Shown: positions 18,001 to 21,000 of the stretch, piece after piece
How positions within the stretch are numbered: position 1 is the first letter of the stretch
Layout of the letters: every line of letters begins with the position of its first letter
Assembly (NCBI RefSeq): GCF_030013595.1
Contig: NZ_CP122768.1
Origin: Escherichia coli
GTDB lineage: Bacteria > Pseudomonadota > Gammaproteobacteria > Enterobacterales > Enterobacteriaceae
Strand: one strand, 5' to 3'
DNA: 64,000 bases
Position numbers: made by a program

Positions 18001-21000
18001 ACATCGCTGTTAATACTGACATTGCAACCAGAGTCAGAGGTACTTGTTTATTGTATTGAGCTTTAATTATTGCCTTCCCTATCATTGATGGTCATGCATA
18101 TACTGAATACGACATATCCGGTTTGATGTAAGGCATAAATGCTTCCTTTTTCGTAATACGTTTCGGTTATAGCAGCAATTACCGCTACAATAGCGACAAT
18201 AGCTGCTCTTTCAACAATGAATGCTGGAAATTCTGTTTATCAATTAAACTTCTGGCTAAATTGTTCTTATGCTTCTTTTTCCTCCTGAGGTGATCACGTG
18301 ATGACAAAAACTTATCTGCTCATGGTCATATCTGAAGAAAGCGTATGTCTCACTTCGTCATTAACACCTTTGACTGCTGATCTGGCAGGTACAGTATGTA
18401 AAGTAAGCCATTCGTCAATAGCTGATGAACGCCAGCCCACAGAACCACTACCAAGACGTACCGGCCTGGGGAAGGTTGCATCGTAGTATTTCGATAACGG
18501 ATTCATTTTTTCGTAAATTGTCGAACGAGATATACCTAACAATTGGCTCAGTTCAGGCATCCGTAAGATGCGTGAAGGAGTCCTGCAGTGTCCGGATTGA
18601 TCTGGCATTTTATCCCCCATAGTGTGGTGAACTGTCGTTACAGTTTGTATTCCCCGGGTAAATTTGTCTGCGTAAAAAAATGGGTTGAGAAAAAAGACAA
18701 TAAATAATTAAAAATCAATATGATAGAAAACGACAGCATTAGTGTTATTTTACTTTTCCCTTATCGCTGTCGATTCTCATTATCATTCATGGCAAAAAAA
18801 CAGCAAAAGAGGCCCTGGTAATGACTCCTGTCAGTAGTACATGTGTTTTCGATAAATGAACCAATGGCTTTTCGTGAATTTCCAGGGAGCGTAAAAAGCA
18901 AATCGTTTTCCGGGCAGGTCGTTTGATGTGAGTACGAAGTGTCAGATTGTTGCGCTCAATGCGCCGGGTAAATATCTTGCCGACAAGATGCTTATCCTGT
19001 GGCATTTCTCTGGTATAACTGCTCCGGTTGTCTCTGGTTATCATGCCTGCGGAGAATGGCTTCAGGAATTCCGGCAACTCACGGCATGTTTCATCAGTGC
19101 GAGGACCAAAAGTGTAAGCCAGCACACCGTCAGCTTTGGTCTTATACGCGTACCAGTGCCACTGCTGACGAGCTTTGTTTTCGACAAAACTCCATTGTTC
19201 ATCAAGTTCACAGATAAGTGCCACATCGACACTGGCGGCTGGAGATATGGTTACTTTACGTGGTGAGCGTTTTTTAAAGTGAGAATGACGGTGTTGATAT
19301 CCACCTTCAGCGTTCTGGAGCTATCGCGAACCCCGGCTCCGTTATGAACCATTTCAACAATTTGCTCTTTAATGCCTGGTTTTCGGGTTTCGTAGATGTA
19401 ATTCAGTTGAAATACACGTTTGCAGGATTAGCACTGGAAACGCTCATGATCTGAGGTGCTGTGATCATAACGGTACACTTTATAGGAATTACAGCGGGGA
19501 GAATATACTGTAACTGTTGCCATATGGTCTCCAGATACCAATAGAATACAACATTAATCTATCGTCAGAAGGCATCACCGGGGCCTTCTGACATAATCTG
19601 TTAATACGTGTACTATTACCCTGTTCAGAAAATATTGATTCAAAAATGAAAACCAGTTAACAGAAAAGCAAAATGATATAATGTTAAAATTTTATATAGC
19701 GCAATAAAAGGAGAATGTTATGTATAATTTTATCACTATAATGTATGATGTCTTTTCATGTTTTGGTGTTCTGGCTAAAAACCAGAATAGCCGTGACATC
19801 CGAAATATTAAAAATTTTTCCTCACATCAACATTCACTGGGCGACATGTTTGATGAATTAATAAACATTATTGATAAAGAACAAGTATTGAGTAAAGAAC
19901 AACGAAAAGTTATATTTAGGAGATATGAAGATCTCTATGTTAAGCTAATGCACTATTCTGTTTTTACAGACAAAACACATCAAATAATAAAACAAAAATA
20001 TTTTAATGACATTGTACCAATGATTCTCGCACTCGACATCAGGAACACATATCGCCCGGATAATGAGATGGCATTTTACTATCATATTCATTCTTTTCTC
20101 ACTCAGATACCGGATAATGAGGATGATATATATCATGCTGCAAGGACATATCTGCGAAATTACGTTAAGTTATGTTTATCCGGATACACGCCAGCGAATG
20201 CGCATTTCAAAGATATCTTTGATGGCGTATATGAATTCATTCGTAATATTCGCAAAAACAGTACACCAGGAAAAACAAAACTTATCGCAACTATCAACAC
20301 ATGCAAAGAAACCTGTAAACATCTGCTTTATTTAAGTAATGAAGACAAGGAAAAAATAATTTCTGACTTAGATAAAGTTCAGGTTGCATGTTATTATCTC
20401 ACTATATTACTGGCTTTCGAAAGACGAACTTCATTAACAAGCATCCTGGCAACTTTATATAAAATGCTGATAAGCGAAAGAGAAGTTTCAGAATATGAAT
20501 GCCAGTTATTATATTTAACCAACCCAATAGATGTAATGAATATACTGAACAAATACATATATTACTTTCCTAATGAGAACTCACCATTTTATACACTGAA
20601 AATTGACAGTGCATTATCGTGGGATGCCATTGACGCAATACGAGACTATAGTATTTCTGATATTTATCTTTATCCTGAACAAAAAACAATAAATTGTGTC
20701 GTTGAGATTGAAAACATTGTCTTTGGCGGTTACATTTATACATTGAACAACGGCGTCACATTACAAAACATAGAAAACTCTTTAAAAGATTCTTCATGCC
20801 ATTATGTCTTAAATGGCTATACAGAATTTGTTAACTGTTTGAGACAACTTACTTCAGGAAAGACTGAAAGTGTTCATCGCACCATCAATAAACTGAACTA
20901 TGAGAAATTACCTTTTGGATTTATCATTGCCGCGTTTGCTATACTAAAGATAGCATTTAAAATAAAATTCAGTAAAAATCATGTAAATATCCGAGCATTA

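Follow-up and report, generated by a model that had tools for sequence, protein, structure and literature searches.

An IS1-family relic in a P4-type integrase island

The window analyzed here (64,000 nucleotides of Escherichia coli contig NZ_CP122768.1) carries on its minus strand, at positions 18817..19579, the relic of a whole IS1-family element of 763 bp (45% G+C). The relic belongs to the backbone of an integrase island, in which the order is a tyrosine integrase gene, a gene for a 605-aa hypothetical protein on the opposite strand, the relic, an AlpA-family HTH gene (PF05930), and a DUF3987/YfjI gene; the integrase is of the P4 type. The same synteny and the same junctions recur at three chromosomal island sites: by clpA (serW region), by ycdU (serX region), and by dgcT. 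The island in the window is the clpA-side one, with urease genes, and positions 1-8621 of the window are collinear with the stretch from ureC to traT of strain OkiPb01701. A search of positions 18000-20000 against Rfam gave chance-level matches only.

Of 5426 complete E. coli genomes, 1033 (about a fifth) carried the 921-bp region around the relic, with a median of one and a maximum of two places per genome and one copy per island; 1085 of the 1087 places were chromosomal. The RefSeq annotation, made with PGAP, labels the locus "IS1 family transposase; frameshifted; internal stop." The relic is thus an ordinary one and already known, since RefSeq has it marked as a pseudogene of the IS1 family in more than a thousand complete genomes of E. 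coli. We found no specific description of it in the literature on IS1N, iso-IS1, and the serW and serX islands, and what our analysis adds is its exact boundaries, the list of its lesions, and the placing of its premature stop codon as an apparently late lesion.

Boundaries and anatomy of the relic

The extent of the relic and its place in an IS1N-like clade follow from its termini and from an end-to-end alignment with intact IS1N-clade elements. The left inverted repeat (IRL) lies at 19557..19579 (GGTGATGCCTTCTGACGATAGAT) and the right inverted repeat (IRR) lies at 18817..18839 (complement, GGTAATGACTCCTGTCAGTAGTA), both on the minus strand, and the tips of the element, GGTGATGC... (IRL, 8 nt) and ...GGAGTCATTACC (IRR, 12 nt), have the same letters as the tips of IS1A. 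The two repeats match each other at 15 of 23 positions, a level reached in 0 of 20,000 random trials, and IS1A's own repeats match at 18 of 23; set against the repeats of IS1A, those of the relic match at 13 and 14 of the 23 positions. A length of 763 bp with imperfect terminal repeats starting GGT(G/A)ATG is what is expected of the IS1 family (approximately 770 bp). An earlier note on this DNA had placed a divergent IS1-family element at 18787-19524 and had suggested a search for terminal inverted repeats. A feature does lie there, but the span followed the ends of open reading frames, and the IS1-type repeats that we located bound the element at 18817-19579: position 18787 is the stop of an over-long insB ORF, 30 bp beyond the element, and 19524 is one base past an ATG.

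Translation and Pfam matches identified the insA remnant at 19251..19523 (minus strand), which has 90 codons and its natural TAA and is broken at codon 32. Translated from its ATG (19523), this frame gives MATVTVYSPRCNSYKVYRYDHSTSDHERFQC*SCKRVFQLNY...LKNAHHVK*, with the stops shown as asterisks. The insB′ (DDE) frame, recognized by Pfam DDE_Tnp_IS1 and by alignment, occupies 18817..19275 (minus strand) and keeps the catalytic residues D108 (19203..19201), D165 (19032..19030), and E190 (18957..18955). At the homologous position, 19269..19275 on the minus strand, lies an A6C motif (AAAAAAC), a putative site of −1 programmed frameshifting that is intact in the window allele; the insA and insB′ frames overlap, with insB′ in the −1 frame at A6C, which would be the layout of the IS1 family. 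The insB ORF as it now stands (18787..19224) overruns the IRR boundary, and, from the position of its end relative to that boundary, 18787..18816 (minus strand) is flanking DNA outside the element that is read by the run-on frame. Published descriptions of IS1 give a length of 768 bp, inverted repeats of about 30 bp, the genes insA and insB, a −1 frameshift at A6C, a zinc finger (ZF) and HTH in InsA, and a DDE motif in InsAB′ (PMC12428005). The anatomy of the relic (763 bp, IS1-type repeats, A6C, and overlapping insA and insB) agrees with that architecture.

We also compared the DNA on either side of the element. The left flank, GAAGGCCCC (19580..19588, minus strand), and the right flank, AGGGCCTCT (18808-18816), match at six of eight positions when shifted by one, with no empty site for comparison. 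IS1 duplicates 8 to 9 bp of its target (PMC12428005), and the two flanks are suggestive of such a duplication in a possibly decayed form. A query made of the joined flanks recovered no empty site: all 49 of the 49 sampled records (of 1027) with both flanks carry the 763-bp insert, their matches being in two pieces that span approximately 1563 bp, which means that the insert is present. Two observations count against the explanation favored below. The target duplication is unclean (6/8) and no empty site was found, so the evidence for the insertion event itself is indirect; moreover, all the island variants examined have kept the relic, which could in principle be the mark of a co-opted role and not of neutrality.

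Family membership and intact relatives

With the conceptually repaired InsAB′ as the query, scores were above the cutoffs for three Pfam domains, Zn_ribbon_InsA (PF03811; 46 bits, cutoff 26.1), HTH_Tnp_IS1 (PF12759; 72.5 bits, cutoff 24.9), and DDE_Tnp_IS1 (PF03400; 197 bits, cutoff 24.1), and for the NCBIfam equivalog transpos_IS1 (NF033558; 209 bits, cutoff 100). By domains and architecture, the relic belongs to the IS1 family, as the earlier note had recognized. That note had also called it distinct from canonical IS1, with about 40% similarity by eye for the InsB-like ORF, and the measured values bear this out: the conceptual InsAB′ is 36% identical to that of IS1A, and the DNA is about 50% identical. 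Canonical IS1 (IS1A to IS1F, 768 bp) does share with the relic the same tips, the A6C frameshift logic, and the order of ZF, HTH, and DDE.

The best intact proteins in a search of 5.8 billion, with 69-72% amino acid identity, came from Enterobacter mori, K. pneumoniae, and E. coli and are unnamed transposases of the IS1 family. These nearest intact relatives (P0001, P0002, and P0004; L007 and L008) are named only "IS1 family transposase," and the ISfinder-derived names that PGAP uses (IS1N, IS1H, ISEc30, and IS1A) fall only on more distant matches. They have in common with the relic a second Cys pair reading CRSC, the SDDW catalytic region, and a C terminus reading ...IEKYMFY (in pieces and in three frames in the relic), whereas they differ from it at approximately 30-34% of DNA positions, have no stop, no C8S, and no W167R, and carry a run of five A residues (A5) where the relic has four (A4). 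The nearest intact DNA was that of K. pneumoniae plasmid copies, at 73%. Two InsB-only ORFs of 68-74% identity, P0112 and P0118, were considered as deeper orthologues and rejected as different IS1-family copies in unrelated contexts (bcsC and caiF-like genes; dispersin and AraC-family genes).

Among named elements, IS1N (iso-IS1 "nu-xi") of S. dysenteriae and K. pneumoniae has the same architecture (inverted repeats, insA, A6C, and insB′) and belongs to the same subclade as the relic; its InsAB′ is 231 aa long, as is that of the relic once repaired, and one NCBI record (P0096) labels the relic ORF "putative IS1nuxi transposase." The IS1N reference (P0011, L009), which supplies the comparison with a Shigella variant that the earlier note had proposed, nonetheless shares only 66% of its amino acids and about 66-73% of its nucleotides with the relic, and ISEc30 shares about 60% of its amino acids. 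IS1N is, moreover, intact and multicopy, whereas the relic is single copy and apparently dead. Of the named IS1 types listed for E. coli, IS1H was the closest by nucleotide identity (73.5%), but its match spans only 79% of the relic (positions 162-763), which makes it a different element. Isoforms in the sense of ISfinder share roughly >95% of amino acids or >90% of nucleotides. Judged by identity, the relic is too distant from IS1N, IS1H, and canonical IS1 to count as an isoform of any of them.

A near-identical intact IS without the stop, which the earlier note had named as the finding that would speak against its reading, was not found in protein, plasmid, or genome searches, in which the best intact protein reached 72% and the best intact DNA reached 73%. 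When 100,044 species-representative genomes were scanned for the exact pattern, with NNN allowed at codon 32, there were 0 matches, in a design that tolerates no mismatch outside codon 32 and with an E. coli representative that evidently does not have the island. The plasmid search also gave four records at ≥99% identity, one of them 4.8 Mb long, which we took to be chromosomal sequences deposited under a plasmid label.

Premature stop codon and other lesions

Lesions were called relative to intact IS1N-clade elements. The stop codon that the earlier note had read inside the Cys-rich motif of InsA (...DHERFQC-TAA-SCKRVFQ...) is there: translation and alignment place a premature TAA at codon 32 of insA (19428..19430, minus strand), between Cys31 and Cys34. 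In the InsA zinc ribbon, these two residues make up the second Cys pair, and they are invariant among eleven aligned IS1-family transposases, and codon 32 in intact relatives and in a deeper orthologous allele encodes Arg (CGC or CGT). Alignment revealed two further substitutions on the same strand. Codon 8 (19500..19502) is TCT (Ser) where relatives have TGT, the first Cys of the zinc ribbon (C8S), and residue 167 (19026..19024), two residues after the second catalytic Asp (D165), is encoded by CGG instead of TGG (W167R).

The 3′ end of insB has lost two single bases. One 1-bp deletion, in the HEK codons (18869..18872), reduced an A5 run to A4 and is common to every orthologous allele examined; the other lies in an A run at 18846..18849. 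With both bases gone, the natural TGA (18833..18831) is no longer in frame, the insB frame runs via the IRR into flanking DNA, and the original C terminus (...HEK / AIGSFIE / KHMYY*) is now split across three frames. Furthermore, ten intact IS1N-clade transposases agree without exception at 146 alignment columns, and the relic deviates from them at 35 of these; by the same measure, with each intact protein left out in turn, these proteins deviate at 0 to 10 columns.

The relic thus has no uninterrupted insA with an intact Cys4 zinc ribbon (TAA at codon 32; C8S) and no uninterrupted insB′ with its natural C terminus and stop (two 1-bp deletions; W167R). Neither does it have copies at different loci, its one or at most two places per genome being in the same island context. 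The earlier note's view that the element is inactivated is supported and can be widened: the nonsense codon is one of several lesions, the others being C8S, W167R, and the two 1-bp deletions.

Allele classes and the order of lesions

Orthologous alleles with the same junctions fell into three classes: class A, the window type (99% or more identity to the window; 802 records); class B (L004 to L006 and L015; 96-97% identity; 233 records); and class C (L012 to L014; 89% identity), which is rare. Classes A and B both have TAA at codon 32, TCT (Ser) at codon 8, and R (CGG) at residue 167, and class C has CGC (Arg), TGT (Cys), and W (TGG) at these places. The A5-to-A4 deletion is present in all three. 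The A6C motif is intact in classes A and C and is mutated to TAAAAC in class B. For class A, no lesions of its own were noted; class B has a GT insertion just after the TAA, and class C has a 13-bp deletion in insA, a 1-bp deletion in the IRL, a GAC-to-GAA change at D165, and a further 1-bp deletion at the 3′ end.

Because class C keeps CGC, TGT, and TGG and yet has the A5-to-A4 deletion, the TAA appears to be a late lesion and not the founding one. This pattern suggests that an early lesion near the 3′ end of insB came to be shared by all classes and that the TAA probably arose later, in the lineage that is now commonest.

Substitution pattern in the relic and its neighbors

We then considered how substitutions are distributed over codon positions. 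Between the window and a class C allele (L012), the 66 coding mismatches were spread 20:23:23 over the three positions (chi-square test, P value = 0.87), whereas in the adjacent integrase gene, mismatches between the window and class C were spread 8:3:41 (P value = 2 × 10−11). Variable sites within classes A and B gave a similar picture in the relic (13:9:9). A flat spectrum is what is expected for any site-fixed IS copy, because the host does not select for the transposase. These results indicate that there has been no coding constraint on the relic since the alleles split; the spectrum is silent on which lesion came first.

The divergence of the relic was similar to the synonymous divergence of its neighbors. 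Between classes A and C, the relic differs by about 11%, with a pS of 0.07-0.26 in the neighboring genes, and this divergence among orthologous alleles at one insertion site supports the description of the element as old. Between classes A and B, the relic differs by 3.3-3.9% and yfjI has a pS of 4.2%. The corresponding pS for the integrase and 605-aa genes is 0.5-1.8%, and accelerated evolution of the relic (3.3-3.9% versus 0.5-1.8%) was considered as an explanation and rejected; the difference is explained by a mosaic boundary close to the left portion of the relic, the segment from the relic rightward having a pS of about 4% (yfjI).

Origin and inheritance of the relic

The locus is very probably the product of an ancient single insertion of an IS1N-like element, followed by decay and by passenger inheritance without mobility. 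An IS1N-like element would have inserted once in an island with a P4-type integrase, between the gene for the 605-aa hypothetical protein and the alpA-like regulator; the copy would then have stayed at that one site, inherited vertically and as a passenger of the island. Lesions would have built up because host selection does not act on a resident IS copy. The 1-bp deletion near the 3′ end of insB, common to all alleles, would be followed in the common lineage that includes the window by C8S, TAA at codon 32, and W167R, and other lineages would have gained different lesions. The window copy would make neither InsA (the repressor that binds the inverted repeats) nor the InsAB′ transposase, which would leave it immobile. 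Like the order of events, this loss of mobility and the probable lack of a function for the host are read from comparisons of sequence.

A quite different account is that the island has co-opted the relic, as a promoter, 5′ leader, or spacer for the downstream alpA-like gene or as a functional 145-aa ORF derived from insB. The relic does lie immediately upstream of alpA and on the same strand, it is present in every sampled island variant with no empty site, and the insA promoter of IS1 overlaps the IRL (PMC12428005); most alleles leave the 145-aa ORF open, and it was listed as a protein in older annotations (P0070). We nevertheless consider co-option very unlikely, since substitutions are flat over codon positions in both comparisons (20:23:23 and 13:9:9), the divergence of the relic is at or near the synonymous rate of its neighbors, and indels and the decay of the inverted repeats vary between alleles. 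In the 145-aa ORF, which is without the DNA-binding N terminus, W167R stands beside a catalytic Asp. Promoters and terminators around the relic were no commoner than in shuffled sequence, with 3 promoter-like sites compared with 4.0 ± 2.2, a crude scan that would still allow for a promoter. In its most specific form, which we regard as similarly improbable, the relic was fixed before the island family diversified and may act as a promoter or leader between the alpA-yfjI module and the 605-aa gene, which is divergent from it; if so, it would affect the excision or replication of the serW and serX urease and tellurite islands.

Still less probable is that the relic is a nonautonomous element for which a resident IS1 of the IS1A or IS1N type supplies a mobilizing transposase in trans. 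The identity of both tips to those of IS1A (8 nt in the IRL and 12 nt in the IRR) would suit such a process, as would the canonical IS1 copies that are common in relic-bearing genomes, but only 13 and 14 of the 23 repeat positions fit those of IS1A, more than 1000 genomes have one copy per island with constant junctions, and searches of E. coli genomes, plasmids, and representative genomes recovered no paralogous copy. The idea that sequencing or assembly introduced the TAA by mistake into an intact, active IS, or that the codon is read through by recoding, has a negligible probability, and we found nothing in its favor. The codon was confirmed directly in nine loci, the window sequence recurs at 100% identity over 921 bp in at least 25 independent complete assemblies, and the same TAA is found in many independent complete assemblies from varied serotypes, hosts, and countries. 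In addition, the 96-97% alleles also carry it, further disabling lesions accompany it, and the collections searched contain no near-identical copy that is intact.

As the decayed remains, very probably, of a single insertion, the relic records an IS1N-like lineage of which we found no active copy in the current databases searched. It is a stable, neutrally evolving marker of the integrase-island backbone, including the islands that O157:H7 and other E. coli have by clpA and ycdU, and the allele series (TAA, GT insertion, and 13-bp deletion) could be of use in following the lineages of the island and its recombination breakpoints. Strain JP538 has a fresh IS1A within the IRL of the relic, with a clean 9-bp duplication (GATAGATTA), which gives a picture of a recent IS1 insertion beside a decayed relic.

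Mosaic backbone and gene content of the island

Comparison of the window with three orthologous island loci from other E. coli (L004-L006) indicates a mosaic history for the island backbone (window ~16580-22950). Between these island variants and the window, pS was 0.5 to 1.8% for the integrase (about 21.7-22.9 kb, minus strand) and hyp605, a 605-aa AT-rich hypothetical gene (19720-21537, plus strand) on the other side of the IS1-family relic from the alpA-like gene. Over the stretch that starts at the relic and continues rightwards through alpA and yfjI, the window diverged from the same three loci by ~4%, and a local peak was found at 17021-17269 (23 to 25 differences per 250 bp). 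The integrase was adjoined by hyp605 in all island variants examined; searches of hyp605 against Pfam and with PADLOC gave no match, and its pN/pS was high when close alleles were compared (~0.4 to 1.2).

A few kilobases from the relic lies a gene annotated by PGAP as a [quoted passage not shown] which we placed at window ~12300-14700 (minus strand) by collinearity with positions 6333-8693 of L010, another orthologous island locus. This gene adjoins YagK/YfjJ and YfjI genes. The module nearest the integrase resembles the decayed backbone of a P4-like or satellite-like element that carries a defence-type gene.

On the basis of the K-12 map, the spot adjoining clpA is the expected place of the tRNA-Ser gene serW. 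ARAGORN found no tRNA genes in the whole 64-kb window. Between the integrase and clpA there are instead two short plus-strand copies (~23085-23140 and ~23262-23325) of ...CCCCCTCACCGCCA, which we take to be a tRNA-Ser 3' end. Each copy is followed by a terminator-like hairpin, the two hairpins being nearly identical, and the copies are probably attachment-site duplicates on either side of a repeat segment.

The relic and its left inverted repeat

An 8-bp inverted repeat spans the left junction of the relic (19566-19590, minus strand), with the arrangement CAGAAGGC-(9 nt)-GCCTTCTG, such that positions 7 to 14 of the relic's left inverted repeat (IRL) pair with flanking DNA. It has no T-run on its 3' side, was not among the terminator scan results, and may be due to chance.

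In E. coli JP538 (L003, NZ_AP025180.1), a canonical IS1A at positions 1567-2333 of the locus lies within the relic IRL, at the equivalent of window 19555-19564, where its insertion made a clean 9-bp duplication, GATAGATTA. This IS1A copy is 767 bp long and has A5C in place of the A6C frameshift motif; the shorter A-run may be an assembly error in the homopolymer or a mutation of the frameshift site.

The relic was also present, at 99.9 to 100% identity, in four plasmid-collection records (H98-H101). All four entries, among them a 4.8-Mb "plasmid" and an EDL933 record of 212 kb, are probably chromosomal sequences that PLSDB lists under the wrong label.
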